Shown: one piece after another, positions 7,245 to 49,315 of the stretch | Numbering within the stretch: the stretch's first letter is position 1 | Layout of the letters: each line of letters begins with the position of its first letter | Origin: Candidatus Omnitrophota bacterium | GTDB lineage: Bacteria; Omnitrophota; Gorgyraeia; Zapsychrales; Zapsychraceae | NCBI GenBank assembly: GCA_016931055.1 | Contig: JAFGFL010000091.1 | Coordinates: 42,108-106,107 of the forward strand | DNA length: 64,000 bases | Direction of reading: 5' to 3' | Translations under genes and position numbers: made by a program | Notes under the pieces: generated by a model | Seen by the model: the letters and a program-made list of their open reading frames with translations, nothing else | What the model was told of the DNA's origin: nothing | Database searches by the model: none

Positions 7245-9212
7245 ATGGCGACGGGATTCAAAAACGCAAAAACATTATGGGCTTGTTGGATGAAGCCTGC
7301 TGATCTGCCGGAAGAAGCGGTTGTTCTCAGTTTTCTTAAACCGAGCGTTGAAGAAGAAATGAGAAAACAAGGGAAAACGGCTGAATTGATTTTCGCGCGG
7401 CAGAAAGCGGCGGATGTTAAACAAAAGGCATTGGACATGTATGTTGAAATGGTCGCTCAGCTCGGGACGGTTTCTTTAAAAGATGGAAAAACATTGCGAA
7501 AGGCGTTAGAGGACGGGGAAGGAATCAGCTCGTGGTGGTTCCATCCGGTTTCAAGGAAGTATTGCGAAGGCGAGCCGACATTTAATCATATTATCCAGAT
7601 ATTGGCAATTAGTCAGGTGGCTGAGGATCATGGGTGTTCCCATATCATTGTTTACGGTGGGCCCTATGAAATTGCAGATGCATTGGGTAAACGATTTTTT
7701 GTATCGGCACAAAAATGCCGAAACCAAAATTCGTGGATGTTTGATTATATTTTGCCGCTCATGCGACGGTTTAAATTTCTTATCGTTTCGATCTATGAAC
7801 TTATTGTTCTTAAATCGTGTGTGACAAATTCAAAGCCAGCGCAAATGGATGTCCTTTTTTCTGGTTTCTGGGACTGGAGCGTCTGGGAAGATGGATCATC
7901 AAAAAAGTTGGTGGATAGGTATTTCCAGGCTGTTCCCGAGAAAGTGAAGAAAGCGGGCATGGAGGTGGGTTGGCTGGCGTGGGTTCAGCACACAACGGAT
8001 CCAAATAAAACACGTCGGTCGATTCAGCAAGCGATAAAACCGCTTCGCCGGCATCCGGAAATCATTATTGTCCAATGTTTCCTGACGATTGTCGATATTC
8101 TCAAGGCCGTTATTGATTTAAGGCCGTTCTTGATCTTTTGGCGTTACAGAAATGTTTCAGGATTAAAAGGCGTTCTTTGCCAGGAGGGGCTTGATTTCTC
8201 TCCGCTGTTTCGAGGGGCTTTGTTTGCTGGTTTTCTGGACTCAACCATTCCTCGCCATGCCTTGATCATGTTGGCTCATCAAAAAGCGGCTTCGCACCAT
8301 CGTCCCAAGAGTGTCCTGAGTTTCCTTGATTTCTTTTTGCATGCGCGGGCCGTTAATGCCGGAATAAAGAAAGGATGCCCCTCATGCGTCTTGGTTGATG
8401 TGCAGCATGCGAGTTATTCACGGGAGAAAACATTTGGGATTTTTCAGCCGAATATTGAAGTTCACGGAAACCCTGATGGATGCATGATCCCCCATCCTGA
8501 TTACATTTGCGCGATGGGTGAACTTGGAAGGGAAATTTTCATTGAAGGCGGGGCAGATCCGGAGCGAGTCTTGATGACGGGGTCTTCCCGTTATGATGGC
8601 GCGACACGAGTTGACGCGGGAGAGAAGCCAAAAACGGGTATTTCAGGGAAACGGATACTGATCGTAACGACTTTACAGAAAATGGGATCCGAATTCGAAA
8701 TGGTTGACACGGTTCATGAGGCCTTCAGGCAATTTCCGGATGTTTCATTGTCTTTACGTTCTCATCCTTTCTTCAGAATGCAAGATAGTCCTGAATTTCA
8801 GCCTTACAAAGACAGAATACAATGCACTTCCGGAACTTCCCTGGATGATGATTTGAACAAGGCGGATATCGTCTTATTCTCTTATTCAACTGTTGCGGAA
8901 GAAGCATTTATTCGAGGGATTCCCGTTTGGCAATGGATTACAGCGGGGTATAACGCGTCCGTGTTCCGGGATATCGGGATGGTGCCAACATTTTTTTCTG
9001 TTGAAAGTCTGGTTCGTGTATATCGTCGATTTCTGGAAAGTCCTGATAAGTATGTGCCTTCGGTTGAACAGAGAAAGCTGGTTAAGCGAAAATGTTTTTT
9101 TGATGACAATGGAAGCGGCAGACTTCCTTCAGATAATATTGCAGAACTGCTGGCAACCATTTGCGGGAAGAAACATGAATTATCCGAATCTAGAGAATAT
9201 GCGGGGATTTAA
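7245..9212 (+). CDS. large uncharacterised protein with a GT-B-like C-terminal region; candidate surface-carbohydrate glycosyltransferase
   Basis: 655 aa; C-terminal GKRILIVTTLQ...LRSHPFF...ADIVLFSYSTVAEEAFIRGIPV resembles the retaining GT-B / TagF-KpsC-like C-domain arrangement; I recognise no precise family. Confidence 0.3.
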   Translation: MATGFKNAKTLWACWMKPADLPEEAVVLSFLKPSVEEEMRKQGKTAELIFARQKAADVKQKALDMYVEMVAQLGTVSLKDGKTLRKALEDGEGISSWWFHPVSRKYCEGEPTFNHIIQILAISQVAEDHGCSHIIVYGGPYEIADALGKRFFVSAQKCRNQNSWMFDYILPLMRRFKFLIVSIYELIVLKSCVTNSKPAQMDVLFSGFWDWSVWEDGSSKKLVDRYFQAVPEKVKKAGMEVGWLAWVQHTTDPNKTRRSIQQAIKPLRRHPEIIIVQCFLTIVDILKAVIDLRPFLIFWRYRNVSGLKGVLCQEGLDFSPLFRGALFAGFLDSTIPRHALIMLAHQKAASHHRPKSVLSFLDFFLHARAVNAGIKKGCPSCVLVDVQHASYSREKTFGIFQPNIEVHGNPDGCMIPHPDYICAMGELGREIFIEGGADPERVLMTGSSRYDGATRVDAGEKPKTGISGKRILIVTTLQKMGSEFEMVDTVHEAFRQFPDVSLSLRSHPFFRMQDSPEFQPYKDRIQCTSGTSLDDDLNKADIVLFSYSTVAEEAFIRGIPVWQWITAGYNASVFRDIGMVPTFFSVESLVRVYRRFLESPDKYVPSVEQRKLVKRKCFFDDNGSGRLPSDNIAELLATICGKKHELSESREYAGI

Positions 9213-9214
9213 TA

Positions 9215-10213
9215 ATGGCACAGACTAAAGTGCTTGTCACAGGTGGGGCGGGATTTATCGGCAGTCATCTGGTTGATCGATTATTGGCCGGTGGATATTC
9301 GGTCACCGTTATTGATAATTTTTCCACCGGAAGGGCGCTGAATCTATCTCACTGCCAAAAAGACATCACGTTGATCGAGGCGGATATAACTGATTTTGGC
9401 AAGATTTCACCTCTCTTTAAAGGAATCGATTGCGTTTTTCATTTAGCGGCGCTGGCTGATATTGTGCCATCGATTGTTAATCCAAGAGCGTATTACTTAA
9501 CCAATGTTTTAGGAACGATGAATGTGTTGGAAGCGTCACGGCTGGCCGGCGTGAGAAAACTGGTCTACACGGCGTCATCCTCTTGTTACGGTATCCCGCC
9601 TGAAGGGTTTTATCCTACCCTTGAGACAGCGCCGATCAATCCCCAATATCCTTACGCGCTGACAAAGTATTTAGGGGAGGAAACGGCTTTACATTGGGGA
9701 CAGGTGTATGGCCTTCCGGCCATATCGTTGCGTTTGTTTAATGTGTATGGGCCGCGGTCAAGAACATCCGGGACTTATGGGGCTGTCTTTGGCGTGTTTC
9801 TGGCGCAGAAGTTGAAAGGGAAGCCGCTGACGGTCGTTGGGGACGGGAATCAGGTGAGGGATTTTGTTTATGTGACGGACGTCGCTGAGGCCTTTTTTTC
9901 GGCAGGTTTTTCGGATGTCCAAAGCGGGATTTTCAATGTAGGAACGGGGAATCCGCAAAGTGTTAATAAACTGGTCTCTCTTTTAGGAGGCGCGAAAGTC
10001 CATATTCCCAAGCGTCCTGGGGAACCGGATATGACATGGGCGAATATCCAAAGGATTAAATCCGAACTTGGGTGGGAGCCAAGGGTTTCGTTTGAAGAGG
10101 GTGTCGCCAAAATACTGGAACATATCGATTACTGGAGAGAGGCTCCGGTCTGGACACCGGAAAAAATTGAGGAAGCAACTAAAGACTGGTTTAGATATCT
10201 TGTAAGGAACTGA
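9215..10213 (+). CDS. NAD-dependent nucleotide-sugar epimerase/dehydratase (extended SDR)
   Basis: VLVTGGAGFIGSHLVDRLL; catalytic YALTKYLGE (YxxxK); about 330 aa. Confidence 0.8.
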   Translation: MAQTKVLVTGGAGFIGSHLVDRLLAGGYSVTVIDNFSTGRALNLSHCQKDITLIEADITDFGKISPLFKGIDCVFHLAALADIVPSIVNPRAYYLTNVLGTMNVLEASRLAGVRKLVYTASSSCYGIPPEGFYPTLETAPINPQYPYALTKYLGEETALHWGQVYGLPAISLRLFNVYGPRSRTSGTYGAVFGVFLAQKLKGKPLTVVGDGNQVRDFVYVTDVAEAFFSAGFSDVQSGIFNVGTGNPQSVNKLVSLLGGAKVHIPKRPGEPDMTWANIQRIKSELGWEPRVSFEEGVAKILEHIDYWREAPVWTPEKIEEATKDWFRYLVRN

Positions 10214-10215
10214 TC

Positions 10216-11748
10216 ATGAATTCGAAAATCGCGAAGAAAATACAAACACCCGGGGTCTTGACCAAAATAGTCGCGGACCTTAAGAAAAAAGGGAAAAAAA
10301 TCGTTCAATGCCACGGTGTATTTGACATTGTTCATCTGGGCCATATTCGCCATTTTAATTTGGCAAAGAAAGAAGGAGATGTTCTGTTGGTGACATTGAC
10401 AAGGGACAAAGATGTTAAACGGGGTCCCGGGCGCCCGATCTTTAATGAAAACATGAGGGCGGAAACATTGGCTTCATTGGACGTGACGGATTATGTGAGC
10501 ATTATTGACGCGCCGACGGCGACTGATTTTATCAGGAAAGTCAAGCCGGATGTGTATGTCAAGGGGATGGAGTATAAACAGAAAGAGAAAGATTTAACGG
10601 GCAAGATTTATGAAGAAGAAGAGGCTATTCAATCGGTCGGCGGGCGCATCGCATTCACGGACGATATCACGTTTAGTTCATCAAACATTATTAACAGCTA
10701 TCTGGATACTTTTCCGCCAAGAACCGTGAAATATCTTAAGGCCATTTCCAAAAGGTATTCCATTGACCATATTATCGATTCAGTCAATGCGCTGCAAAAA
10801 CTGAAGGTCATTGTGATCGGAGACGCGATCGTTGATGAATATCATTATTGTACGACAATGGGAAAATCTTCGAAGGCTGAAATAGTGGTCAATAAGTATG
10901 AATCGGAGGAAATGTTCGCGGGGGGCGCTTTAGCCACGGCTAATAATGTGGGGAGTGTTTGCGGAGGCGTTGATCTGGTCACGATTTTGGGGAACAATCC
11001 TTCTCATGAGGACTTTGTCCGTCGGAGACTTAATTCAAACGTTAAACCTGCTTTCTTTTACCGGCCGGGAACAGGAACAACGGTGAAACGTCGGTTTGTC
11101 AGCAGTGTGTTTAACAGGAAGTTGTTTGAAATTTGTTATATGAATGACAGTGATATTTCACGGGAAGAGGAAGCCGAGATTGTTCAGAAGCTGAAGGAAA
11201 TGATCCATAGATATGATCTGGTCGTGGTCTCGGATTTTGGGCACGGGTTATTAACCCGGCGTATCATTGATCTGATTTGCAAGAAAGCCAAATATCTGGC
11301 CATCAATGTTCAGACAAACAGCGCGAATGCCGGATTTAATTTGGTTACCAAATATCCCAGGGCCAATTGTGTTTGTATCGATGAGATGGAACTGCGTTTT
11401 GCCGCCCATGACAAATTCGGTGATGTCCGGACGCTTTCCAAAAAGATATATAACCAGATTGGTTGCGATCATATCATTGCGACGAGAGGGAACTATGGTT
11501 CGATCTGTTATTCAAAAGAACATGGCTATCATGAGACCCCCGCCTTTTCAAGCAACGTGGTGGATGCCATTGGCGCGGGTGACGCGTTTTTTGCCTATAT
11601 TGCGCCCTGTTTTGCCTCGGGCATGCCGCAGGATATGGTTTCGTTTGTCGGCAACGCGGTCGGTTCGTTGGCTGTGCAGATCGTCTGCAACCGGGAACCG
11701 GTGAATTTGGTGGACTTGACAAAGTTTATGACACGATTACTTAAATAA
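10216..11748 (+). CDS. hldE: bifunctional heptose 1-phosphate nucleotidyltransferase / heptose 7-phosphate kinase (HldE/RfaE-like, domain order reversed)
   Basis: N-terminal cytidylyltransferase-like domain CHGVFDIVHLGHIRH (HxGH) with RGPGRPIFNENMR; C-terminal PfkB kinase domain with VIVIGDAIVDEY and VVDAIGAGDAFFA. Confidence 0.75.
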   Translation: MNSKIAKKIQTPGVLTKIVADLKKKGKKIVQCHGVFDIVHLGHIRHFNLAKKEGDVLLVTLTRDKDVKRGPGRPIFNENMRAETLASLDVTDYVSIIDAPTATDFIRKVKPDVYVKGMEYKQKEKDLTGKIYEEEEAIQSVGGRIAFTDDITFSSSNIINSYLDTFPPRTVKYLKAISKRYSIDHIIDSVNALQKLKVIVIGDAIVDEYHYCTTMGKSSKAEIVVNKYESEEMFAGGALATANNVGSVCGGVDLVTILGNNPSHEDFVRRRLNSNVKPAFFYRPGTGTTVKRRFVSSVFNRKLFEICYMNDSDISREEEAEIVQKLKEMIHRYDLVVVSDFGHGLLTRRIIDLICKKAKYLAINVQTNSANAGFNLVTKYPRANCVCIDEMELRFAAHDKFGDVRTLSKKIYNQIGCDHIIATRGNYGSICYSKEHGYHETPAFSSNVVDAIGAGDAFFAYIAPCFASGMPQDMVSFVGNAVGSLAVQIVCNREPVNLVDLTKFMTRLLK

Positions 11749-11758
11749 GGGAGGAAGT

Positions 11759-12775
11759 TTGATGAATCAGTTGAAAACGGTTTTGGTGACGGGCGGAGCA
11801 GGATATGTCGGCGCAGTTCTTGTTCCTAAATTATTAGATCAGGGATACCGGATCAAAGTGCTTGACCTTTATACATATGGAGAAGATGTTTTTGACGGCG
11901 TAAAAGATAAATCCAAATTAGAAGAGATCAAGGGGGATATTTGTGATCAATCCTTGCTGAAGAAGTCACTCCAGGGGTGGGACGCGGTTATCCATTTGGC
12001 CTGTATTTCCAATGATCCGTCTTTTGAACTTGACCCTGAGTTGAGCCGAAGGGTGAATTATGAGTGTTTTGAACCGTTGGTGAAGATCAGTAAGGAAGTT
12101 GGTGTCAAAAGATTCATTTATGCTTCTACCTGCAGCGTTTACGGGGTCAGCGACGCCGAGAACGTGACTGAAGACCATCCGCTACTGCCCATTACGGATT
12201 ATAACAAGTACAAGGGATTATGTGAACCCATATTGGCGAGGTATCAATCACCGGGATTTACTACCGTTACGATCCGGCCAGCGACGATTTGCGGATATTC
12301 CCCGCGGCAAAGATTTGATCTGACGGTCAATATTTTGACGAACCATGCGTACAACAAAAATCACATAACGGTATACGGGGGAAAACAGGAACGTCCGAAT
12401 ATCCATATTGATGACATTACTGATCTCTACGTCATGCTTTTGAAGCTTCCGGATGAACAAATCGCGGGAAAAATATACAATGCGGGTTATCAAAACCGGA
12501 CAGTATCAGATATCGCAGAAATAGTCGCGAATGTGATGGCTGAAGAATTCCCGGCAAGGGATCGAGCGACCATATCGACAACGCCGTCTGACGACAATCG
12601 ATCCTATCGGATTTCATCGGAAAAAATCAAAAAAGAACTGGGATTTGTCCCTCAGCATACCATTGAGGATAGTGTGAGGGATCTGATCAGGGCTTTCGAA
12701 GCAGGCAAATTCAAGGATCCCCTTAATAATATCCGTTATTACAATATCAAAATGCTGAAGGCGGTGAAGGTATGA
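11759..12775 (+). CDS. NAD-dependent nucleotide-sugar epimerase/dehydratase (extended SDR)
   Basis: VLVTGGAGYVGAVLVPKLL; YNKYKGLCE (YxxxK); RBS GGGAGGAAG upstream. Confidence 0.8.
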   Translation: MMNQLKTVLVTGGAGYVGAVLVPKLLDQGYRIKVLDLYTYGEDVFDGVKDKSKLEEIKGDICDQSLLKKSLQGWDAVIHLACISNDPSFELDPELSRRVNYECFEPLVKISKEVGVKRFIYASTCSVYGVSDAENVTEDHPLLPITDYNKYKGLCEPILARYQSPGFTTVTIRPATICGYSPRQRFDLTVNILTNHAYNKNHITVYGGKQERPNIHIDDITDLYVMLLKLPDEQIAGKIYNAGYQNRTVSDIAEIVANVMAEEFPARDRATISTTPSDDNRSYRISSEKIKKELGFVPQHTIEDSVRDLIRAFEAGKFKDPLNNIRYYNIKMLKAVKV

Positions 12776-13902
12776 CGTCCTGCGTGATGAGTGTTCCTTA
12801 TGTCGATCTGGCGCAGCAGCACGCGGCCATCAAAAATGAGTTGATGGATGCGATGGGGCATGTCCTTGACGGCGGTAAGTTTGTGCTTGGATCGGAAGTT
12901 CATGAGTTTGAAGAAAAGTTTGCCCAATTATGCGGTGTCCGTTTCGCGTTGGGACTCAATTCCGGGACAGACGCTCTTATCCTTGCGCTTAAGTCGTTGA
13001 ATATCGGAGCGGGAGATGAAGTCATCGCCGTTGCGAATTCATTTGTTTCTTCGGTCAGTTGCATCATGGCGGTGGGGGCGCGCCCTGTTTTTGTCGATGT
13101 CAACGCGGAATCCAATATGGATCCGCGGCTGATCGAACAGGCGATCACGCCCAAGACGAAGGCGGTTCTTCCCGTTCACTGGACGGGTCGGCCCGCGGAT
13201 ATGACGGCGATCATGTCTATCGCCAAGAAGCATCATTTGGCTGTCATTGAGGACTGCGCTCAGGCGGTTTGCGCTGAGCATCAAGGCCAGAAAGTTGGAT
13301 CATTTGGTCATGCCGGATGTTTCAGTCTTCATCCGCTAAAGACATTGAATGCTTGCGGCGATGGAGGCGTGTTGACGACAAATGATCCAGACATTTATGA
13401 GAAAGTGCGGATCCTCAGAGACAACGGGTTCCGGACGCGTGAAGAGTGCGTCATGTGGAGCAATAATTCCAGGCTGGATACCATCCAGGCCGCTATTTTG
13501 ATGGTTAAATTCAAGTATCTTGACGGCTGGACCGAGAAGCGAAGAGAAAACGCGCGATTCTATCAGGATCATCTTTCCGATTTGTCCGAGGTCCAGACGC
13601 CGGTTGATGAAGCCGGCACCAGGGCTGTTTATCATACTTTTGTCATTCAAGCGGATGTTCGGGACCGTTTGAAAGCTTATCTGGAAGAAAAAAGTGTTGG
13701 CACAAAAATCCATTATCCTGTTCCGCTTCATCTGCAGCCGTTTGCCAGAGGTTTAGGATACAAACGAAACAGTCTTCCGGTCACGGAGAAACAAGCGGGG
13801 CGGATTCTGAGTCTGCCGGTTTATCCTGAATTGGGAAAAGACGGGTTGAGTTATGTGGCCCAATGTATTCATGAATTTTATCGTATGAAAGGAAAGAAAT
13901 GA
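12772..13902 (+). CDS. DegT/DnrJ/EryC1/StrS-family PLP-dependent sugar aminotransferase
   Basis: NSGTDALILAL, GDEVI, FSLHPLKTLNACGDGG (PLP lysine); about 375 aa. Confidence 0.85.
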   Translation: MTSCVMSVPYVDLAQQHAAIKNELMDAMGHVLDGGKFVLGSEVHEFEEKFAQLCGVRFALGLNSGTDALILALKSLNIGAGDEVIAVANSFVSSVSCIMAVGARPVFVDVNAESNMDPRLIEQAITPKTKAVLPVHWTGRPADMTAIMSIAKKHHLAVIEDCAQAVCAEHQGQKVGSFGHAGCFSLHPLKTLNACGDGGVLTTNDPDIYEKVRILRDNGFRTREECVMWSNNSRLDTIQAAILMVKFKYLDGWTEKRRENARFYQDHLSDLSEVQTPVDEAGTRAVYHTFVIQADVRDRLKAYLEEKSVGTKIHYPVPLHLQPFARGLGYKRNSLPVTEKQAGRILSLPVYPELGKDGLSYVAQCIHEFYRMKGKK

Positions 13903-15047
13903 AGGTCCCTTATTCTTATTTAGACCGTCAGTTCGCGGATATTGACGCTTACTTGGAAGACATCAGGGCGCTTGTTGAAAGCGGGGATTTTACGTTGGGC
14001 AAGCCTGTTGATGAATTTGAAAAAAGCTTTGCCCGGTTGTGCGGTTTGCCGTACGCGATCGGGGTTGGATCAGGAACGGATGCACTGATCTTGTCTTTAA
14101 AAATTTTGGGAATAGGCCCCGGAGATGAGGTGATTACGACACCAAATACCTTTATCTCGACAGTTGGCGCTATCGTTATGGTGGGCGCGCGTCCGGTTTT
14201 TGTTGATAATAATGAAGAATATACGATTGATGCCGCGAAGATTGAGAAGGTGATCACCAAAAAGACAAAAGCGATCCTTCCGGTCCATCTGACGGGTTGC
14301 CCGGCCGATATGCCGACGATCATGAAAATCGCCCATCGGCACAAAGTATTGGTTGTTGAAGACGCGGCTCAGGCCATTCTTGCCTCGATCGATGGGAAAC
14401 ACATGGGTTCTTGGGGGGAAACAGCTTGCTTCAGTCTGCATCCGCTGAAGAATTTGAATGTCTGGGGCGATGGGGGCGTCATTGTGACCCGCTCGGCGCA
14501 GTTGTGCCGGAAGCTGAAACTTTTCCGGGACCACGGCATGGTGACGCGTGATGAAATTGAGATGTTCAGTCACAACAGCCGTCTGGATTCCATTCAGGCG
14601 GTTGTAGGCAACCGTTTGATTGGCGAAGTGCATTCCATCACGGATAAACGCATCGCTAACGCGCGGCGATTTGATGATGCTTTTAAAGGTTTGGACGATT
14701 ATATCAAGGTCCCGCCGAGAAGGGTGAATGTCAAACGGGTTTATCATACTTATGTGCTTCGGGTTAAGGATCGGGATAAATTATTGGCGCATTTGATTGA
14801 GAAGGGGATCAGGGCGAAAATTCATTATCCCATTCCTGTTCATTTGCAGAAAGCGGCCAAATATCTGGGATATAAACGGGGCGATTTTCCTGTTTGTGAA
14901 CAGGACGCGAGAACGATTTTGACCTTACCGGTCCATCAGCATCTAACGTCCGGCGAAATGGAATACATGATTGATTGCGTGAAAGGCTTTTATGCGGGAC
15001 GGAAAATCAAAGGAGTCAAGAAGCATGCGGCATGTTGTCGGGGTTGA
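13899..15047 (+). CDS. DegT/DnrJ/EryC1/StrS-family PLP-dependent sugar aminotransferase (tandem paralog)
   Basis: GSGTDALILSL, GDEVITTPNTF, FSLHPLKNLNVWGDGG; 4-bp overlap with the upstream DegT. Confidence 0.85.
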   Translation: MKVPYSYLDRQFADIDAYLEDIRALVESGDFTLGKPVDEFEKSFARLCGLPYAIGVGSGTDALILSLKILGIGPGDEVITTPNTFISTVGAIVMVGARPVFVDNNEEYTIDAAKIEKVITKKTKAILPVHLTGCPADMPTIMKIAHRHKVLVVEDAAQAILASIDGKHMGSWGETACFSLHPLKNLNVWGDGGVIVTRSAQLCRKLKLFRDHGMVTRDEIEMFSHNSRLDSIQAVVGNRLIGEVHSITDKRIANARRFDDAFKGLDDYIKVPPRRVNVKRVYHTYVLRVKDRDKLLAHLIEKGIRAKIHYPIPVHLQKAAKYLGYKRGDFPVCEQDARTILTLPVHQHLTSGEMEYMIDCVKGFYAGRKIKGVKKHAACCRG

Positions 15048-15654
15048 TTTTGATAATACCATCGTGAATTATGACAAGGTGATGTATCAAACGGCTGTCC
15101 GGTTCGGTTGGGTTGATGATTCAGTGAGGAAAAACAAGAAAGATGTTCGTGACCGGATCAGATTGTTGCCGCAGGGTGAAATAAAGTGGCGAAAATTGCA
15201 GGCTACTGTTTACGGGCAGGCCATGAGGGGCGCGATCATGAACATAGGGGTGAAGGAGTTCTTTCGGTCTTGTCGGATGAAAAGGATACCGACGTATATT
15301 ATCAGCCATAAGACCAAGTACGCGGCCGAAGATGAACAGAAAATTGATCTCAGGAAGGTGGCGTTGGATTGGATGGAGGAACAGGGGTTCTTTGGCCAAA
15401 AAGAAATGGGGCTTGCCCGAGATCAAGTGTATTTTGAATCGACACGGCAAAAAAAGATCGAACGGATCCGGAAAATGGGATGCACTTGTTTTGTTGATGA
15501 TCTTCAGGAGACTTTTTTGGAACCGTCGTTTCCAGGAGGCGTGGAAAAAATATTATTTTCGAAAAATGCCGCCAGCTGTTTGCCGAAAGAAATAAAAATA
15601 ATCGGTAGTTGGAAGGAAATCAGTGACTATCTCTTTAACACAAACAACGCATAA
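15025..15654 (+). CDS. HAD-superfamily hydrolase (putative sugar-phosphate phosphatase, GmhB/KdsC-like role)
   Basis: VGVDFDNTIV (DxDxT motif I); FVDD near the C-terminus; AAAGGAG RBS 8 nt upstream of the ATG at 15025. Confidence 0.5.
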   Translation: MRHVVGVDFDNTIVNYDKVMYQTAVRFGWVDDSVRKNKKDVRDRIRLLPQGEIKWRKLQATVYGQAMRGAIMNIGVKEFFRSCRMKRIPTYIISHKTKYAAEDEQKIDLRKVALDWMEEQGFFGQKEMGLARDQVYFESTRQKKIERIRKMGCTCFVDDLQETFLEPSFPGGVEKILFSKNAASCLPKEIKIIGSWKEISDYLFNTNNA

Positions 15655-16705: not shown

Positions 16706-16707
16706 AT

Positions 16708-18473: not shown

Positions 18474-18481
18474 GTTCGGTC

Positions 18482-30296: not shown

Positions 30297-30350
30297 GTGT
30301 TATGACACGAACCTAAGTGGGTTTGGTCGTTTATGAGATAGGAGGAAGGG

Positions 30351-34950: not shown

Positions 34951-34959
34951 AAAGCGGTT

Positions 34960-37568: not shown

Positions 37569-37618
37569 AATGAGCGATGCTAACAAGAAAAACAGCCCTT
37601 AGGGGAGAATTGAATCAT

Positions 37619-38278: not shown

Positions 38279-38284
38279 CGACTG

Positions 38285-41779: not shown

Positions 41780-43005
41780 TGGAAGTATTATCGCCTGCAA
41801 ATGTCAAAGCGATGGATTACCAGGAGATTTTGGAAAGCATTCTAAAACGGGAGCCGTTTAAACCGTTTGATCCCGTCCTGATGGCGTTTGCCAAAGATGT
41901 TTCGGATGCCGTATTGAGCGACCGTCATTTTCGCGGTTACCCTGACATGATGGCGGCGGCTCACTGGATGCGGGCAAGTCATATAAAGGAGGTTCGCGAG
42001 AGATATGAATCCAGGCGGCAGGGACGGATTTGGCTGCCGAGAGGGACGGTCGTGCATTTTGCTCCGGCGAATGTGGATACTGTTTTTATTTACTCATGGA
42101 TTATTTCTTTTCTTCTGGGCAACAAAAACATCATCCGGCTTTCTCAGGGGAGAGGTCAGCAAGTGAACGCGTTTCTTCAGGCGGTCAATGGATTGCTCGA
42201 GAATAAGCGATACCAGCCGGTGAGCGACCGGAATATGTTTATCTGTTATGGGCATGAGGAGACGGTAACGGGAAGCCTTTGCGCTCAGTGCGATGTGCGT
42301 GTTATTTGGGGGGGGGATGAAACGGTTCGTTTGATCCGGCAGGTACCGCTGCCGCCTTACGCGACGGAAATCGTTTTTGCGGACAAGTTTTCTTTGGCGG
42401 CCATAAAAAGTAAGGCTGTCACAATATCGACGGAGAATGATTTGAACGATCTCGCTGGAAAATTCTATAATGATGCCTTCTGGTTCAATCAGAACGCCTG
42501 TTCATCACCGAGAATGGTTGTATGGATCGGTTCCAAGAGTGATAATGAGAGAGCGAAGAAGCTGTTTTGGGACGCGCTAAAGAAAGTAATTGAAAGAAAT
42601 GGCCTCAAGGAGGATGTGGCGGTCGGGTTGAACAGGATGTTGACGGGATACAGTTTTGCCGCTGAAGGATTAGCGGATCGATTGTCCTCTCAGGGGACGG
42701 AGAGGCCGTACCGTTTGCATATTAATGATTTAAGCGACCGGGTTAGGACGCAGCATGCTGGCGGCGGTGTATTCCTTGAAATGGAACTGTCCTCATTGTC
42801 CCTGCTAACCAGGCATGTGACTCGCAAGGATCAAACGTTATCTGTTTATGGATTTGACAAAGATGAATTGTCCGAATTCTCATCAGGTTTATTAAACGGA
42901 GGCGTGAACCGGGTCGTTCAGGTTGGGCAAGCGCTTGAGTTTGATTTGATTTGGGACGGATTTGATTTGTTTACTTATCTTTCGCGTGAAATCACGGTGA
43001 AATAA
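41779..43005 (+). CDS. LuxC-like acyl-CoA/acyl-protein reductase family protein
   Basis: About 408 aa, overall aldehyde-dehydrogenase-like; HFAPANVDTVFIYSWIISFLLGNKNIIRLSQ, VIWGGDETV; genomic context with LuxE-like/ACP/ligase as in the V. cholerae O1 rfbKLMNO genes. Confidence 0.45.
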   Translation: MEVLSPANVKAMDYQEILESILKREPFKPFDPVLMAFAKDVSDAVLSDRHFRGYPDMMAAAHWMRASHIKEVRERYESRRQGRIWLPRGTVVHFAPANVDTVFIYSWIISFLLGNKNIIRLSQGRGQQVNAFLQAVNGLLENKRYQPVSDRNMFICYGHEETVTGSLCAQCDVRVIWGGDETVRLIRQVPLPPYATEIVFADKFSLAAIKSKAVTISTENDLNDLAGKFYNDAFWFNQNACSSPRMVVWIGSKSDNERAKKLFWDALKKVIERNGLKEDVAVGLNRMLTGYSFAAEGLADRLSSQGTERPYRLHINDLSDRVRTQHAGGGVFLEMELSSLSLLTRHVTRKDQTLSVYGFDKDELSEFSSGLLNGGVNRVVQVGQALEFDLIWDGFDLFTYLSREITVK

Positions 43006-43017
43006 TGCAAGGGACCT

Positions 43018-44037
43018 ATGCCTAATAAGAAAAATACTCATGTTATGATCATCGCCGAGGCGGGTGTTAACCACAATGGAAACTTGGAGACGGCGTTGCG
43101 GCTGGTTGATGAGGCGGCATGTGCGGGTGCCGATGCCGTTAAATTCCAGACTTTTATTGCCGAAGCGGGTGTCAGCAAGTTCGCGCCGAAAGCCGAATAT
43201 CAGAAGAGAACCATGGGGAATGAGGAATCGCAACTGGAAATGGTCAAGAAGCTTGAACTGGATGAAAACGCGCACAGGAAATTGATGCAACGCTGCAAAC
43301 AGAAAGATATCCTTTTTCTTTCGACACCTTTTGACAGGGGAAGTATTGAATTGCTTGATCAGCTTGGACTGGAGATGATCAAAATTCCTTCCGGTGAGAT
43401 CACGAATCTTCCATATCTGCGAAAGGTCGGGGCCTTGAAGAAAAAGCTCATTCTTTCGACCGGCATGTCAACCCTCAAGGAAATCCGGGTGGCGCTCCGG
43501 ATACTGGAATCCTCAGGGACGCCAAGGAGCCGGATAACAGTTCTTCATTGCAATACCGAGTATCCAACTCCCTACGAGGACGTGAATCTTTTGGCCATGT
43601 TGACGATCAGAGACAAGTTGGGTGTTAAGGTCGGTTATTCCGATCATACTCTAGGCGTTGAAGTTCCTATTGCGGCGGCCGCTTTGGGCGCGTCGGTTAT
43701 TGAAAAACATTTTACTCTTGACCGGACGATGCCCGGACCCGATCATATAGCTTCCATTGAACCAGATGAACTGAGGCAAATGGTTTTGGCCGTGAGAAAT
43801 ATTGAGAAAGTCCTGGGGGATGGTACTAAAAAGGCTTCGCCTTCTGAACAAAAGAATATTCCTATCGCTCGTAAAAGTATTGTGGCTGATAAAGACATTG
43901 CCAAAGGGGAAATCTATTCCGAGAGTAATATTACAATCAAAAGGCCAGGAACGGGGATCACTCCTATGCAATGGGACCATGTGTTGGGCATTCCATCCAA
44001 AAGAAACTTTTGTAAAGATGAATTGATTGAATTATAG
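43018..44037 (+). CDS. nonulosonic acid synthase, NeuB/PseI/LegI family (copy 2)
   Basis: VMIIAEAGVNHNG, AVKFQTF, LSTPFD, C-terminal SAF domain (SIVADKDIAKGEIYSESNITIKRPGTG). Confidence 0.8.
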   Translation: MPNKKNTHVMIIAEAGVNHNGNLETALRLVDEAACAGADAVKFQTFIAEAGVSKFAPKAEYQKRTMGNEESQLEMVKKLELDENAHRKLMQRCKQKDILFLSTPFDRGSIELLDQLGLEMIKIPSGEITNLPYLRKVGALKKKLILSTGMSTLKEIRVALRILESSGTPRSRITVLHCNTEYPTPYEDVNLLAMLTIRDKLGVKVGYSDHTLGVEVPIAAAALGASVIEKHFTLDRTMPGPDHIASIEPDELRQMVLAVRNIEKVLGDGTKKASPSEQKNIPIARKSIVADKDIAKGEIYSESNITIKRPGTGITPMQWDHVLGIPSKRNFCKDELIEL

Positions 44038-44103
44038 ATCAAACAATGAAATCAATGAGAACAGGATTAATGACTAATGTATGTCAATGGGAAAGGGCTT
44101 TAA

Positions 44104-45741
44104 ATGAGTAAACCAAATATGCTATTCATTTCACCACCGGATATACCTATCGAAGAAATTAGGAATACGAATACACCGACGGCACAGTGGGCAACGAACA
44201 TTTCCATGAAGATGGGGATCTTATCGCTTGCGGCCTATACTTTAAAGCATGTGGATGCACAAATCCGGATTATTGATCTTGGTCTCGAGATTTCAAATAA
44301 TGAGGATAGTTTTAAAACGATGATATGGGAGGAGTTTTTACGTCTGACCATGTCGAAAGTGTTTGATTCAGAACTTCCTGAGATTGTCGGGATATCGGCT
44401 CTTTATAACTCCAATGCAGGATATATGGAACTTATTGCTTCAACCGCAAAAGTTTTATGGCCGGGAGTCTTGGTTATTGCGGGGGGTATTTTACCGACCA
44501 ATTATTATCGTTATGTTCTTGATGAGGCCCCGAGTATCGATGCCATCGTAATCAAAGAAGGAGAGAAGCCTCTTGTTGGGCTTCTTACAGCCGGTGATAA
44601 GAAAGAATACCTTGCTGGGGCAAAGGGATGGATGACAAGAGAAAGGCTTCATGAAGAGCCAACCATGGACTTAATCAATGATCTCGATGAAATCCCGTTC
44701 TTTAGATATGACCTGATTGATTTCGATGCTTATCAGAAATTGAATCGTTACCATGGTGAGCGCTCGTCTGATTCAATTGCTGTATCGGTGATGACAACAC
44801 GGGGATGTCCCTATGGATGTTGTTTCTGCGCATCACATACGGTCCATGGAAAGAAAATAAGACGACATAGTTCTGAACGTGTTTTGAATGACATCCATAA
44901 ACTAAAGGAATTATACAAAGTGAATATCATTTTGATTGAAGACGATCTTTTTTTTATTCAGAAAGAGTATGCGCTTGAGGTGTTAAAGGGCATTTCAAAA
45001 ATGAATTTGACCATTGAATTTCCAAACGGGATTTCCATCCAACATATGGATGAAGAAATGGTGGATGCTTTAAAAACAGCCGGCCTTAAAATGGCAACAC
45101 TAGCTGTGGAATCAGGGAGTGAGCGTGTGCTCAATGAAATCATTCATAAACCATATAAGAAACTATCAAGAGTGAAATATGTTGTTTCTCTTTTGCGAGA
45201 ACGGGGAATATATGTTCGGGCTGGTTTTATAATTGGTTTTCCGGGAGAAACGATGGAAGAGATTCTTGAAACTAAGCGGTTCATGAAAGAAACAGGCTTT
45301 AATTGGGTGCAGATATTTATTGCTACACCGTTAGTCGGATCTGAACTTTATGATATCTGTAAGAAGAACGAGCTGCTGATATCTGACAGTCTCGAGAAAT
45401 TCCATTTTGGGCAATCTAACATAAGATTATCACATTCAACTTCCGAAGAATTTGTTAACCTTCGATATTTGATGAATTTGGAAGTCAATTTTGTTGATAA
45501 TTATGATTTAAGGAATGGTAGCCCGCAAGTTGCACTGATTGGATTTCTCGATGTAATCAATCGGGTCCCCAATCACGCGTTTGCTTACTATTTTGCCTCT
45601 CAATGTTATGAAAAGATGGGAAAGGAAGATCTATGCCGTGAGTATCAAGCAAAGTATAGAGAGATTGTTCTTGCTTCAAGCGAATGGATGGGATACACAA
45701 AACACTTTAATCTTCCAATTGGGGAAATGGCTGAATTATGA
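44104..45741 (+). CDS. cobalamin(B12)-binding-domain radical SAM enzyme (class B) #3
   Basis: B12-fold N-terminus (MLFISPPD...GILSLAAYTLKH); CPYGCCFC (CxxxCxxC); 545 aa. Confidence 0.75.
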   Translation: MSKPNMLFISPPDIPIEEIRNTNTPTAQWATNISMKMGILSLAAYTLKHVDAQIRIIDLGLEISNNEDSFKTMIWEEFLRLTMSKVFDSELPEIVGISALYNSNAGYMELIASTAKVLWPGVLVIAGGILPTNYYRYVLDEAPSIDAIVIKEGEKPLVGLLTAGDKKEYLAGAKGWMTRERLHEEPTMDLINDLDEIPFFRYDLIDFDAYQKLNRYHGERSSDSIAVSVMTTRGCPYGCCFCASHTVHGKKIRRHSSERVLNDIHKLKELYKVNIILIEDDLFFIQKEYALEVLKGISKMNLTIEFPNGISIQHMDEEMVDALKTAGLKMATLAVESGSERVLNEIIHKPYKKLSRVKYVVSLLRERGIYVRAGFIIGFPGETMEEILETKRFMKETGFNWVQIFIATPLVGSELYDICKKNELLISDSLEKFHFGQSNIRLSHSTSEEFVNLRYLMNLEVNFVDNYDLRNGSPQVALIGFLDVINRVPNHAFAYYFASQCYEKMGKEDLCREYQAKYREIVLASSEWMGYTKHFNLPIGEMAEL

Positions 45742-46901
45742 AAAAAATATGTATTATTACTGGATCACGGGCGGAATACGGGATTCTCAGGCCTTTGATC
45801 GAAGAAATTAAGAATGACGGCAGTCTTGAACTGCAATTGCTGGTTACAGGGATGCACCTATCGACGGAATTCAATCTCACTTTTCAGGAGATAGAGAAGG
45901 ACGGATTTCCGATCAGCGAAAAAATTGAGACGCTGCTGAGTTCTGATACACCTGTCGGCATCTCAAAATCGATGGGATTGACTATCATCAGCTTCAGCGA
46001 AGCCTACGAGCGACTGAAGCCTGACCTCATTGTTGTCCTTGGGGACCGATTTGAGATTTTCAGCGCTCTTGTTCCGGCTCTGATTTGCGGGATCCCGGTG
46101 GCGCACATTGCCGGCGGCGAAATAACGCAAGGGGCTTTTGATGACGCCTTGCGTCATTCCATCACTAAAATGAGCCAGATCCATTTTACGGCGACCGAGG
46201 AATACAGAAAAAGGGTCATTCAATTGGGCGAACATCCTTCTACGGTCTTTAATGTCGGAGCCCCGGGGATCGATGCCATCCAAAAGACGCGATTCTTGAC
46301 CAGAGAAGGATTGAAGAAGGAACTGGGGATTGGCTTTAACAAGCGAAATCTGCTTATTGTATTTCATCCGGCGACCTTGGAGAAGAAAACGGCGTCCAAA
46401 GACCAATTCAGGGAGATACTTTCTGTTTGTGACGAACTCAAAGACACGAATATGTTTTTTGTTAAATCAAACGCGGATACCCATGGCCGGATCATCAACG
46501 CGATGATTGATGAATATGTCGCGGTCAATTCCGAGACAACATGGGCATTTACATCGTTAGGGCACGAAAAATACTTGTCTCTTCTGCGGCAGGTGGACGG
46601 CATGATAGGAAATTCTTCAAGCGGTATTGTTGAAGCGCCCAGTTTGAAGGTGGGCACGATCAATATCGGAGACCGGCAGAAGGGAAGAGTCCGGGCCCAA
46701 AGCGTCATCGACTGTGAGGCGACAAAAGGGGCGATAAGGAAGGGGATTAAGACGTTGTATTCAGCGGCCTATCAAAGAAAACTAAGAAATGTTCTCAATC
46801 CCTATGGGAAAGGGAACGCGGCAAAATCGATCAAGGGAATCATTAAATCATATCAGTTGAACAATATTGTTAAAAAGAAGTTTTATGACATCAAGGGATA
46901 A
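45738..46901 (+). CDS. UDP-N-acetylglucosamine 2-epimerase (hydrolysing), NeuC/LegG-like (copy 2)
   Basis: KICIITGSRAEYG, DLIVVLGDRFE, HIAGGEITQGAFDDALRHSITKMSQIHF; colinear with copy 1. Confidence 0.8.
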   Translation: MKKICIITGSRAEYGILRPLIEEIKNDGSLELQLLVTGMHLSTEFNLTFQEIEKDGFPISEKIETLLSSDTPVGISKSMGLTIISFSEAYERLKPDLIVVLGDRFEIFSALVPALICGIPVAHIAGGEITQGAFDDALRHSITKMSQIHFTATEEYRKRVIQLGEHPSTVFNVGAPGIDAIQKTRFLTREGLKKELGIGFNKRNLLIVFHPATLEKKTASKDQFREILSVCDELKDTNMFFVKSNADTHGRIINAMIDEYVAVNSETTWAFTSLGHEKYLSLLRQVDGMIGNSSSGIVEAPSLKVGTINIGDRQKGRVRAQSVIDCEATKGAIRKGIKTLYSAAYQRKLRNVLNPYGKGNAAKSIKGIIKSYQLNNIVKKKFYDIKG

Positions 46902-46904
46902 AAT

Positions 46905-48137
46905 ATGACTGTTAAAGGGAAACGAAATTTGGGAAAAAGAAATCTTCGGCCCGCCGTGTTGGGAGGAAAGCCCGCTTTTAATGAATTGATCAGTATCACG
47001 AAACCGACTATAACGTCCATCGGATGGCTGCGAAACAGGTATGGCGCTGTCTTGAAAAGCGGTGTTATAACCAACGCCGGAAATGTCAGGGAATTCGAGA
47101 AACGGATTGAAGAATACTGTGGCGTCAAGAATGCGGTGGCGGTCAGCAGCTGTACAAGCGGACTCATGCTGGTGTTAAAGACGATGAACCTAAAAGGAGA
47201 GGTTATTCTTCCCAGTTTCACGTTTCATTCGACGGCCCATGCGGTTGCTTGGGCGGGATTAAAACCTGTTTTTGTTGATTGTGATAATCGCACGTTTAAT
47301 ATTGATTCTGGGGAAGTTGAACGGGTGATCAATTCTCAAACCAGCGCGGTCATTGGTGTTCATTTGTTTGGAAATCCGTGCAATGTAAAGGAACTTGAAC
47401 GCATCGCAAAAAGGAACAAGCTGGCCTTGTTGTTTGATTCGGCCCACGGTTTTGGGGCTCAGTATAAAGGCCATCCTTTAGGATCGTCAGGGGATGCCGA
47501 AGTCTTCAGCTTAAGCCCGACAAAACTCCTTACAGCAGGAGAAGGAGGAATTGTCACGACGAATGACGATACACTGGCCAGAAATATCCGTGTGGGGAGA
47601 AATTATGGAGATGCCGGGACCTATAGTTGCGAATTTTCTGGTTTAAACGCGCGGATGAGCGAATTGCATGCGCTTTTAGGTATTTCAAGTCTTGAGAACC
47701 TTGAGAGGAATGTCCAATGGCGGAACAAGCTTGTTCGACTATACAAATCGTTATTATCATCGATCCCGGGTATTCGTTTTCAGGAAATCAGAGAAGGGGA
47801 CAGGAGTTCTTTCAAGGACTTTTCAATTGTGATCAATGAAAAAGAGTTTGGATTGAACAGGGACGTTTGCGGGGCATGTCTTGAGAAAGAAAATATCGGA
47901 GTAAAAAAATATTTTTACCCTGCCGTTCATACCCAGAAGGCTTTTGCCCGGTATTATAACAAGAGTTACCAACGGACTTTAAGAACAACAGTGGCCGTTT
48001 CGGAGAATATTCTGAGTTTGCCGCTTTATTCACATATGAAGGAAACTCATGTACGTAAAATTTGCGCTTGTATCGAAGGGATTAATCGGAACAAGCTTCA
48101 AATACAATCCTTATGGGAAAAGAATAAGTGGCTATAA
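46905..48137 (+). CDS. DegT/DnrJ/EryC1-family PLP-dependent aminotransferase (LegC/PseC-like)
   Basis: VSSCTSGLMLVL, FSLSPTKLLTAGEGG (PLP lysine), about 410 aa. Confidence 0.8.
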   Translation: MTVKGKRNLGKRNLRPAVLGGKPAFNELISITKPTITSIGWLRNRYGAVLKSGVITNAGNVREFEKRIEEYCGVKNAVAVSSCTSGLMLVLKTMNLKGEVILPSFTFHSTAHAVAWAGLKPVFVDCDNRTFNIDSGEVERVINSQTSAVIGVHLFGNPCNVKELERIAKRNKLALLFDSAHGFGAQYKGHPLGSSGDAEVFSLSPTKLLTAGEGGIVTTNDDTLARNIRVGRNYGDAGTYSCEFSGLNARMSELHALLGISSLENLERNVQWRNKLVRLYKSLLSSIPGIRFQEIREGDRSSFKDFSIVINEKEFGLNRDVCGACLEKENIGVKKYFYPAVHTQKAFARYYNKSYQRTLRTTVAVSENILSLPLYSHMKETHVRKICACIEGINRNKLQIQSLWEKNKWL

Positions 48138-49315
48138 TCAAAGAGGTGATTTTTATTGCTAATTTCCCATGGACCCAACGGGACAACGAGCGTTTTGGCG
48201 TTGATATTTTGCAGAAGCAAGGGGCTTTCAAGATTTCGGTTTTAGATGTTACTCGGGCGTTTTTGCCGTATCTACCAGAAGAAAAATTGTCTGAACCTTC
48301 TTTCTCAACCGAAGTTCGAAGGCTGAATAGTGCGGAAGAGATTCCGAGAGCTATGGCGGGGATTGATCCTAAAACAGCTTTTGTGTTTGTTTTGCTGGGA
48401 GAAGATCCGAAACGACGATTGATTTACCGACTGTTGTCTAAACATCAAATACGTTACGGAGTCATAACGACCAATTTATTTCCGGTCCCTCCTGTCACGA
48501 TGGATAATGTGTTGTCGAAACTGGGAAGTCCGAGCCGTGCTTACGCGTTTCTCAGCGCAAAGGTAAGAAAAATGTGTTTTCTTTTGACTAATCGTATCAT
48601 GCCGTTAAGAAGCGTTGATTTGTGGGTCACGACGAATAAAGACGATATTTCCCGATATTCCTTTCCCAGGGATAATAAGACAGAGTTCCTTCTTGGACAC
48701 GCGTTTGATTATGATTTGTTCCTGAACAGGAAAGCAAATGAAACGGATTCAACAGAAAGAACATGTGTTTTTATCGATCAATATCTGGCTTTTCATCCTG
48801 ATTTTGCCCGGTTTAATATCAAATCATATGTGTGTGCCGACCAATACTATCCGTCGATATGCCGGTTCTTTGAATATTTGGAAAAGAACTTAAACTGCGG
48901 TATTAAGATTGCGGCGCACCCTCGATCTGATTATTCAATTTATGGTGACTGCTTTAAAGGGAGGCCTATCGTTAAGGGAAGAACCCATGACCTGATGGCG
49001 GAGGCATCTTACGTTGTCGCGCATAACTCGACGGCTTTGAATTTCGCGGTGCTTTACAGAAAACCGGTTCTTTTTGTGACAACCAATGAATTAAAAGTTA
49101 CTCCTTCTCACGCGTTTGTCGAAGCGATGGCGGCATGGTTGGGAAAAGTCCCCATTAACATTGATGAATCGCTGGACAAAATCAATTTGAATTTAGAGTT
49201 GGTAGTGAATGAGGAAAAATACTGCGCTTATGAAGAAAGATTTATAAAAATGCCGGGGACGTCCCAAAAACCTTTATGGGAAATCATCACCCGAAGGCTT
49301 AAACAATATGTGTAG
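48128..49315 (+). CDS. uncharacterised protein; GT-B-like C-terminal domain (TagF/sialyltransferase-like arrangement); candidate nonulosonate transferase
   Basis: KIAAHPRSDY...DLMAEASYVVAHNSTALNFAVLYRKPVLFV resembles the C-terminal nucleotide-sugar-binding half of retaining GT-B enzymes; family not recognised. Confidence 0.3.
   Translation: MAIIKEVIFIANFPWTQRDNERFGVDILQKQGAFKISVLDVTRAFLPYLPEEKLSEPSFSTEVRRLNSAEEIPRAMAGIDPKTAFVFVLLGEDPKRRLIYRLLSKHQIRYGVITTNLFPVPPVTMDNVLSKLGSPSRAYAFLSAKVRKMCFLLTNRIMPLRSVDLWVTTNKDDISRYSFPRDNKTEFLLGHAFDYDLFLNRKANETDSTERTCVFIDQYLAFHPDFARFNIKSYVCADQYYPSICRFFEYLEKNLNCGIKIAAHPRSDYSIYGDCFKGRPIVKGRTHDLMAEASYVVAHNSTALNFAVLYRKPVLFVTTNELKVTPSHAFVEAMAAWLGKVPINIDESLDKINLNLELVVNEEKYCAYEERFIKMPGTSQKPLWEIITRRLKQYV

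Follow-up and report, generated by a model that had tools for sequence, protein, structure and literature searches.

The window considered here is a stretch of 64,000 nucleotides from a metagenome-assembled genome (MAG) of Candidatus Omnitrophica/Omnitrophota, on a contig of 119 kb. All of it is a single surface-glycan gene cluster, read in one direction, from this uncultured Candidatus Omnitrophota bacterium. The + strand carries all of its approximately 57 genes, with neighbours overlapping or only a short distance apart, and the cluster holds three modules for building acidic keto-sugars, A, B and C, that end respectively in the genes T1, T3 and T4. These three and a further gene, T2, had been singled out in a sequence-only reading of the window as encoding large, unassignable proteins and as prime candidates for new families of transferases that use cytidine monophosphate (CMP)-activated sugars. 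The four are:

7245-9212, + strand: T1, 655 amino acids; predicted GT-B fold, candidate transferase for the CMP-activated product of an aldolase cassette.
21313-22623, + strand: T2, 436 amino acids; N-terminally membrane-anchored putative glycosyltransferase (GT) of the TIGR04372 family.
35679-37568, + strand: T3, 629 amino acids; predicted GT-B fold, closest to TagF, its start overlapping the stop of a cytidylyltransferase gene by 4 nt.
48128-49315, + strand: T4, 395 amino acids; unannotated family, candidate legionaminic-type nonulosonate transferase.

The open reading frames are all present with the coordinates, lengths and strand originally given for them. T1 corresponds to JW847_09630 at NCBI, identical except for a start 15 codons further upstream, and T3 to the identical JW847_09755; the entries for T2 and T4 are MBN1870833.1 and MBN1870856.1. 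All four are real genes, with homologs elsewhere that have conserved neighbours, and the alternative of chance or misannotated open reading frames was ruled out by those homologs, by synteny and by the NCBI gene calls. GC skew is positive in every 2-kb bin of window positions 1-64000, ranging from +0.12 to +0.23.

Our view is that T1, T3 and T4 are probably GT-B transferases, each dedicated to the ulosonic acid that its own module provides in cytidine-nucleotide-activated form, with T2 being a TIGR04372 glycosyltransferase. Confidence is above this level for a role in glycan assembly as GT-B transferases and below it for the particular CMP-sugars as donors, and the strongest functional evidence comes from gene neighbourhoods. 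The modules, from Pfam matches supplemented for module B by NCBIfam, are:

424-7243, + strand: module A, with genes for an HpcH/HpaI aldolase, a methyltransferase, CTP_transf_3 (2028-2837), a GFO oxidoreductase, a SIS isomerase, a 2-hydroxyacid dehydrogenase, an SDR and a DHQS-like protein; T1 is next.
24407-35682, + strand: module B, with genes for HisF/GATase, a WbuX amidotransferase, NeuB, an epimerase/dehydratase, a NeuC-like protein, a Maf/MptE-like protein (30521-31552), two B12 radical SAM enzymes and CTP_transf_3 (34960-35682); T3 is next.
37577-48137, + strand: module C, with genes for a PglD-like acetyltransferase, an SDR, an AMP-ligase, LuxE, LuxC, NeuB, a B12 radical SAM enzyme, a NeuC-like protein and DegT; T4 is next.

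Module A would follow a pyruvate-aldolase route and has a CMP-type cytidylyltransferase of its own, and modules B and C would be NeuB/NeuC-type nonulosonate routes with one CMP-type cytidylyltransferase among them (34960-35682, in module B). Presumably module A supplies an activated ulosonic acid for T1 and module B a CMP-nonulosonate for T3, and module C is a second nonulosonate pathway, ending at T4. The proposal that each of the four genes directly follows a cytidylyltransferase or other activation gene stood up for T3, which comes after CTP_transf_3, for T1, which is directly after the DHQS-like gene and has the CTP_transf_3 gene 4.4 kb upstream, and for T4, which is preceded by the NeuC-like and DegT genes; it did not for T2, which adjoins neither an activation gene nor, in particular, one for a CMP-type cytidylyltransferase.

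These arrangements recur elsewhere. At all five T1-family loci examined (the window, L004, L005, L014 and L017) a CTP_transf_3 gene is within 5 kb upstream on the same strand. Ahead of the T1 homolog in L005 and L017 are genes for an HpcH aldolase, CTP_transf_3, GFO, SIS, a 2-hydroxyacid dehydrogenase and a phosphatase; in L004 they are for an HMGL-like aldolase, CTP_transf_3 and a HAD phosphatase, and in L014 CTP_transf_3 and the dehydrogenase are kept near the T1 homolog. For the T3 family, NeuB is present at each of the five informative loci and CTP_transf_3 at four of them. The order Maf, radical SAM, radical SAM, CTP_transf_3, T3 is also found in L006, from another Omnitrophota MAG, and in a Planctomycetia MAG an ABC exporter gene is followed by a T3 homolog with NeuB, NeuC and WbuX nearby. 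Two distant members of the T3 family are inside complete PseB/C/F/G/H/I clusters, those for pseudaminic acid (Pse). With the T4 family, NeuB is within 8 kb at seven of seven loci and three members come directly after CTP_transf_3. The order NeuB, NeuC, DegT, T4 is kept in L006, and the legionaminic-type clusters in which the family is seen, in a Methanoregula archaeon and several uncultured bacterial lineages, have NeuB, NeuC, PglD-like, DegT, PtmE-like and CTP_transf_3 genes. In every informative locus sampled, whether from Omnitrophota, Planctomycetota, other uncultured MAG lineages or the Methanoregula archaeon, the context of the T1, T3 and T4 families is an ulosonic-acid one. Homologs in genomes that lack ulosonic acid pathways had been named beforehand as evidence that would count against the proposal; they do not figure among these loci because a CMP-type cytidylyltransferase and/or NeuB gene adjoins the T1, T3 and T4 families in each informative context sampled.

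The T1-linked cassette of genes for HpcH/HpaI aldolase, CTP_transf_3, GFO, SIS, 2-hydroxyacid dehydrogenase and a phosphatase or DHQS-like protein (window 424-7243; L005 1134-8000; L017 1641-8011; L012 15493-17167) is found in unrelated lineages, and every time it is ahead of a T1-family gene. By analogy it reads like a counterpart of KdsD/KdsA/KdsC/KdsB with a pyruvate aldolase instead of the phosphoenolpyruvate-dependent synthase, and it looks like a route to an undescribed CMP-activated 3-deoxy-ulosonic acid. No paper on the cassette was found in a literature search.

Each of the four proteins had been thought to have a C-terminal segment arranged like the donor-binding half of a GT-B enzyme. 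AlphaFold (AF2) models bear this out for T1 and T3; the folds of T2 and T4, and throughout the transferase activity, the donor and the acceptor, are what we infer. The T1 model, made from a 42-sequence alignment, has a predicted local distance difference test (pLDDT) value of 92.2 and a predicted template modelling (pTM) score of 0.92, and the T3 model, from 118 sequences, has values of 93.8 and 0.92. With E<=1e-3 as the limit, Foldseek comparison of the two models to the PDB gave 176 matches for one and 243 for the other, and GT-B-fold enzymes make up the 50 listed in each case. Structure prediction had been proposed as a check, with a methyltransferase or hydrolase fold as the contrary outcome, and neither model matches a methyltransferase or an ordinary hydrolase fold. 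For T1 the best matches are UDP-N-acetylglucosamine (UDP-GlcNAc) 2-epimerases (E 5e-10, TM about 0.59), followed by TagF (E 1.3e-9), with TarL, NeuC and GT1 enzymes also matched and the epimerase, TagF and TarL matches spanning E 5e-10 to 2e-8; the model again indicates a GT-B fold and does not discriminate among these subgroups. For T3 the best match is TagF (E 6e-10, TM 0.53 on the target), and next are TarL, UDP-GlcNAc 2-epimerases, glycogen synthase, trehalose-phosphate synthase and PimB', with GT4, GT5 and GT20 enzymes included; the GT-B fold of the model is unambiguous. Both proteins have approximately 250 residues beyond their structural matches. In T1 these are mostly helical and include a moderately hydrophobic helix at 176-194, and in T3 there is a long helical insertion with a moderately hydrophobic helix at 165-183.

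Because Foldseek ranks UDP-GlcNAc 2-epimerases about equal to TagF, transferase activity and a CMP-sugar donor can be ascribed to T1 only conditionally. A reading of T1, and possibly T3, as non-transferase GT-B enzymes, kin of the sugar-nucleotide 2-epimerases and hydrolases that would modify or hydrolyse the activated sugar, can point to those top T1 matches, NeuC being among them, and to weak Epimerase_2 matches in five of 42 T1 relatives (E of at least 0.028). The T1 segment S-T-V-A-E-E-A is also one that we take to resemble the epimerase nucleotide-binding segment. However, the Epimerase_2 scores of the T1 relatives are far below Pfam thresholds, two genuine Epimerase_2 (PF02350-type) proteins are already encoded in the cluster, and T1 comes last after the cytidylyltransferase, the position expected for a consumer of the activated sugar. 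Neither T1 nor T3 gave a PF02350 (UDP-GlcNAc 2-epimerase) match in the Pfam search. A T1 relative, P0163, is fused to a GT2 domain, and T1 itself weakly matches a nonulosonic acid (NulO) transferase family, BFO_1060, that is genetically implicated. On this evidence an epimerase- or hydrolase-like role is very improbable.

Returning to T1 as a transferase, the features of its C-terminal lobe merit attention. In inverting sialyltransferases it is the histidine of a His-Pro (HP) motif that protonates the departing phosphate, and 3-deoxy-D-manno-octulosonate (Kdo) transferases keep this histidine (PMC9587256). R505-x-H507-P508 and E553 of T1 are invariant in 42 sequences, and conservation is at least 90% for S548-T549 and E552. 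In the model H507-P508 sits after strand 2 of the lobe (strand 501-505), and after strand 4 there is S548-T549 and then a helix that starts V-A-E552-E553. Cytidine-nucleotide GT-B transferases with the HP motif comprise the bacterial sialyltransferases GT38/52/80/100, Kdo transferases and TagF. Q387-H388, in the N-terminal half of T1, is also invariant in the alignment, and for the D/E-D/E-G catalytic-base motif no obvious equivalent is seen in T1 at the level of the sequence.

None of the four proteins has a Pfam-A match at E<=0.01, and to that extent the description of them as carrying no assignable motif was right; with NCBIfam, T2 and to a lesser degree T1 depart from it, and three of the four are already in or beside database families (T2 in TIGR04372, T1 similar to TIGR04326, T3 with PF27878). 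T1 residues 65-589 match positions 30-570 of the 602-position TIGR04326 profile with 62.7 bits, well below the cutoff of 250, at E 2e-17, from which T1 would be in a sister group related to TIGR04326 and not a member by the cutoff; the JGI gives this name to some T1 relatives. Residues 483-561 match the BFO_1060 family model (NF046086) with 19.9 bits (cutoff 200) at E 3.4e-4, and the C-terminal lobe has a weak match to TIGR04396. Sub-threshold Pfam matches among the 42 relatives are, apart from Epimerase_2, to Glyphos_transf (two, E about 0.04) and to DUF6716, a putative glycosyltransferase (two). T1 homologs form 72 clusters. They include two fusions, that of P0163 (976 amino acids) to the GT2 domain and that of P0167 (921 amino acids) to an S-adenosylmethionine (SAM) methyltransferase domain.

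The T3 family is larger than it at first appears: a word-indexed search gave five homologs, and an exhaustive profile search at E<=1e-3 gave 398 representatives. Precomputed PF27878 (PFTS_polysacc) matches are listed for P0106, P0107, P0109, P0250, P0300 and P0321 and not for T3 itself (P0105), which connects to the PF27878-carrying proteins at E<1e-25 in the profile search. After strand 4 T3 has S522-S523 and E527, and neither TagF-type histidine is among its family-wide conserved positions.

Two further readings bear on T3. In the first, T1 and/or T3 would be TagF-like phosphotransferases that use a cytidine diphosphate (CDP)-activated donor, transfer a polyol-phosphate or sugar-phosphate and make phosphodiester links. 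TagF/TarL being the best PDB matches for T3 and near-best for T1 favours this, as do the weak Glyphos_transf matches in two T1 relatives, the invariant Q387-H388 of T1, which could act like the TagF catalytic histidine, and the presence in the cluster of a TagD-like cytidylyltransferase domain. That domain is N-terminal in a bifunctional protein encoded at 10216-11748, in which it is fused to a C-terminal PfkB kinase, a domain order that we take to be the reverse of that of HldE. We nevertheless regard the TagF-like alternative as distinctly unlikely: PF04464 (Glyphos_transf) is matched by none of the four, the conserved neighbours are CTP_transf_3 genes of the KdsB/NeuA type with NeuB or an aldolase and not of the TagD type, and the conserved positions of T3 lack both TagF-type histidines.

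In the second, ordinary GT-B glycosyltransferases would be present among the four, with T2 and T3 the likeliest, acting on UDP-, GDP- or dTDP-sugars, with adjacency to ulosonate genes reflecting only a shared operon. T3 does have Arg/Lys where diphosphate-binding GT-B enzymes have them and no HP motif, GT4, GT5 and GT20 enzymes are among its structural matches, T2 also lacks the HP motif and is not beside a CMP-type cytidylyltransferase gene, and several nucleoside diphosphate (NDP)-sugar pathways are encoded in the cluster. Yet T3 is translationally coupled to a CMP-type cytidylyltransferase, with the adjacency kept in L006, the distant PF27878 members are in self-contained Pse clusters with no other candidate Pse transferase evident, and conventional GT2 and GT4 genes for NDP-sugars are already in the cluster. 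Such a role is, with these points taken together, rather unlikely.

T4 is in an unannotated family, and its 104 homologous clusters are all hypothetical. T4 was not self-retrieved in the homolog search, its 90% cluster (P0331) being represented by a 56-residue fragment, and self-matches can be lost in this way. In 56 sequences D194, D217, A262-A263-H264-P265 and T286 are invariant and S301 is conserved in at least 90%. S301-T302 is approximately 37 residues past the AAHP motif, a spacing typical of HP-motif sialyltransferases. The two invariant acidic residues, D194 (within D-Y-D) and D217, could, by their sequence, be equivalent to the D/E-D/E-G motif. One member of the family, P0090, passes PF07922 (GT52) with 28.6 bits (cutoff 26.1) in a match to the last 100 positions of the profile, and T4 itself and 55 of the 56 sampled relatives have no PF07922 match; four of the 56 weakly touch TIGR04372.

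The HP motif, taken as His-Pro followed approximately 35-45 residues on by a Ser/Thr pair, is thus present in T1, where its position was checked on the model, and in T4, by its alignment, and is lacking in T3 and T2. The four proteins had no BLASTP match to one another or to any other window protein. In hhalign comparisons T1 is in register with T4 at the HP and S-T regions (E 0.012), and the entire C-terminal lobes of T1 and T3 align over 259 columns (E 0.046). Family hidden Markov model (HMM) cross-searches gave one marginal match only, that of A3 to a T4-family protein (E 9e-4). Grouping of all four as one detectable sequence family was rejected on the non-significant profile-profile comparisons, and placement of T1 and T3 in one family was rejected by the HMM cross-searches. 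PDB sequence searches with the T4 and T1 family profiles, with P0090, with T2 alone and with the profile of a distant T4 subgroup gave nothing relevant, and neither did tblastn of T1, T3 and T4 against plasmids. A literature search on the family names found no paper on TIGR04326, TIGR04372 or PF27878. The searches made found no characterised member of the T1-T4 families, none of which, by the tests made, is in the known ulosonic-acid transferase families compared.

T2 is a different case. Its residues 192-401 match TIGR04372 with 215.2 bits (cutoff 45), and NCBI gives its entry the same name. The suggestion that it is membrane anchored agrees with one strong N-terminal hydrophobic/transmembrane helix at residues 42-60, and its reading frame has 4-nt overlaps with both the upstream methyltransferase gene and the downstream exporter gene. 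The sole homolog found, on a Solidesulfovibrio carbinolicus plasmid, is 33% identical and in a syntenic neighbourhood; genome and metagenome scans gave no usable relative. The two contexts available both have a block of DegT, HAD-like, APH-kinase and split transketolase genes and a Maf-like gene. With T2 having no demonstrated CMP-sugar link, the notion of new families of CMP-sugar transferases is pared down to T1, T3 and T4 as plausible candidates.

The transketolase block itself, with DegT, HAD-like, APH-family kinase and split (N and C halves) transketolase genes, is at 12772-18473 of the window and at 3967-8681 of L009. It is syntenic, with 35-61% identity, to one on the S. carbinolicus plasmid pDCAR1 that adjoins pseB/pseC, a TIGR04372 gene, genes for TPR proteins and a long Maf-like gene.

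Several considerations weigh against assigning ulosonic-acid transfer to the products of T1, T3 and T4, or glycosyl transfer to T2. The window encodes three ulosonate synthases and two CTP_transf_3 proteins, and module C is without its own activation gene. For T1, Foldseek places UDP-GlcNAc 2-epimerases slightly above TagF, the weak Epimerase_2 matches of its relatives (5/42) outnumber those to Glyphos_transf (2/42), and the predicted fold alone cannot tell a transferase from an epimerase or hydrolase. T3 has R468-Y-R470 in place of the HP motif (strand 463-469), with K-x-K as the family consensus, and in T2 the histidine of L-R-M-G-H248 is replaced by Ser in the sole known homolog. The top 50 PDB matches of the T1 and T3 models contain no sialyltransferase or Kdo/Pse transferase (GT52, GT80, GT99, GT107), and the profile-profile links among the four families are not significant (E 0.012-0.52, probabilities <4%).

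With that in mind, a scheme for dedicated ulosonic-acid transferases can be outlined. At the membrane, T1, T3 and T4 would each add the activated sugar of their module to a glycan under construction that is probably lipid-linked. Nucleotide binding would fall to the C-terminal Rossmann lobe and, in T1 and T4, the invariant HP histidine after the second strand of that lobe may assist departure of the phosphate, with the following Ser-Thr and Glu-Glu perhaps holding phosphate and ribose in the manner of bacterial sialyltransferases, Kdo transferases and TagF; in T3, Arg/Lys would replace His-Pro. The acceptor and the membrane would be bound by the N-terminal lobe, which in T1 and T3 is enlarged by approximately 250 residues that are mostly helical with one hydrophobic helix. 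T2 would probably attach another sugar or substituent, a product of the aminotransferase/kinase/transketolase block next to it, ahead of export through the adjoining ABC transporter. A more specific proposal, and one held tentatively, with rather more doubt than belief, is that T1, T3 and T4 each found an uncharacterised family of ulosonic-acid glycosyltransferases: that of T1 for an undescribed CMP-activated 3-deoxy-ulosonic acid, that of T3 (PF27878) pseudaminic- or legionaminic-type and without the otherwise universal HP motif, and that of T4 legionaminic-type and common to bacteria and methanogenic archaea.

Apart from the modules, the window has the following:

9215-21316, + strand: NDP-sugar and modification block (Pfam/NCBIfam), ending in T2 and then the ABC exporter.
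22620-24410, + strand: ATP-binding cassette (ABC) exporter with fused transmembrane and nucleotide-binding domains (ABC_membrane and ABC_tran in Pfam), directly downstream of T2.
Remainder of the window: dTDP/GDP-sugar genes, one GT2, two GT4 and two genes for polytopic membrane proteins without a family match (Pfam/NCBIfam).

In L007 a T3 homolog, and in L016 a T4 homolog, is likewise flanked by similar ABC exporters. The polytopic proteins, encoded at 55054-56712 (approximately eight predicted helices) and 60499-62034 (approximately seven), have no Pfam or NCBIfam match and can be presumed to serve as a Wzy-like polymerase or ligase and as a flippase. Among the module genes, that at 30521-31552 was overlooked when the cluster was described as otherwise having no recognisable sialyl/Kdo-type transferase: its 343-amino-acid product matches PF01973 (Maf) with 60 bits (cutoff 34.6), a family with no match for any of T1-T4, and has a weak PseD match and a counterpart of 67% identity in another Omnitrophota MAG. 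Though about half the length of typical Maf proteins, it is recognisable by its sequence as a candidate for a Maf-type nonulosonate transferase. Three genes for B12-binding radical SAM enzymes are inside the two NeuB modules (31362-34950, 44104-45741), with counterparts in the related loci L004, L014 and L017, and the enzymes may C-methylate or otherwise modify nonulosonic acids. In module C the genes for an AMP-binding ligase, a LuxE acyl-protein synthetase and a LuxC acyl-CoA reductase (39291-43005), between those for the PglD-like acetyltransferase and NeuB, are an unusual acyl-activation/reduction set for a nonulosonate pathway.

For the most part, the enzymes responsible for linking pseudaminic, legionaminic and other bacterial ulosonic acids to polysaccharides are not known, and the CAZy families for ulosonic-acid transfer are still being defined, with GT118 dating from 2024 and GT140 from 2026 (PMC12887879). 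The T1, T3 and T4 families have tight and repeated linkage to ulosonic-acid pathways across phyla, and for two of the three there are now confident GT-B models and a defined set of candidate residues for catalysis. The fold and the type of system are already known; the main value is in well-defined, testable candidates, for glycoengineering and for annotation of ‘hypothetical’ genes in environmental and archaeal glycan clusters, and in a possibly undescribed aldolase-based pathway, as the T1-linked cassette may indicate an activated sugar that has not been described.

Comparison with known systems puts the candidates in perspective. The retaining ulosonic-acid transferases GT99 (WbbB), GT107 (KpsC/KpsS), GT118 (KpsS1, Pse) and GT140 (KrkA) have a modified GT-B fold with helical insertions, use CMP-Kdo or CMP-Pse as donor and keep the HP histidine (PMC9587256, PMC12887879), but they are absent from the best 50 structural matches of both T1 and T3 and show no similarity in sequence. 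They serve as recent precedents for GT families founded on the transfer of ulosonic acids. The Maf (MptE-like/DUF115) flagellin nonulosonate transferases presumably do the same work and are in the same type of cluster, though they are of an unrelated fold family. With the GT52 sialyltransferases (PF07922, such as Neisseria Lst/NST) the T4 family shares the AAHP motif and the spacing to S-T, and has the one passing member; in contrast, sequence searches of the PDB with T4-family profiles turn up no GT52 structure, and the gene context is legionaminic-type rather than N-acetylneuraminic acid (Neu5Ac). Among the uncharacterised surface-carbohydrate families, T2 is a member of TIGR04372, T1 is similar over nearly the full length of TIGR04326 at a score below the cutoff, and relatives of T3 carry PF27878.

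A close structural likeness is to the TagF/TarL teichoic-acid polymerases, CDP-glycerol and CDP-ribitol phosphotransferases (PDB 3L7I-3L7M, 8VA1) that are the best match for T3 and near-best for T1. Shared with them are the two GT-B-like lobes, the extra N-terminal membrane-associating helices and, if the donor proposed here is correct, a cytidine nucleotide; T1, and not T3, which lacks the histidines, also has an HP-type histidine where strand 2 of its C-terminal lobe has ended. Against this, TM is only approximately 0.5 with 12% identity, a sequence match to PF04464 is absent, and the gene context of T1 and T3 points to CMP-ulosonates and not CDP-polyols. The Tannerella forsythia proteins Tanf_01245 and TFUB4_00887, of the BFO_1060 family, are TagB-like GT-B transferases of Pse/legionaminic acid derivatives that have an HP motif, are encoded adjoining a nonulosonate pathway and are genetically required for the terminal NulO addition in O-glycosylation (PMC5420450). 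The C-terminal region of T1, 483-561, weakly matches the model of this family, while T1 is approximately 200 residues longer and is with an aldolase-type cassette rather than a NeuB-type one.

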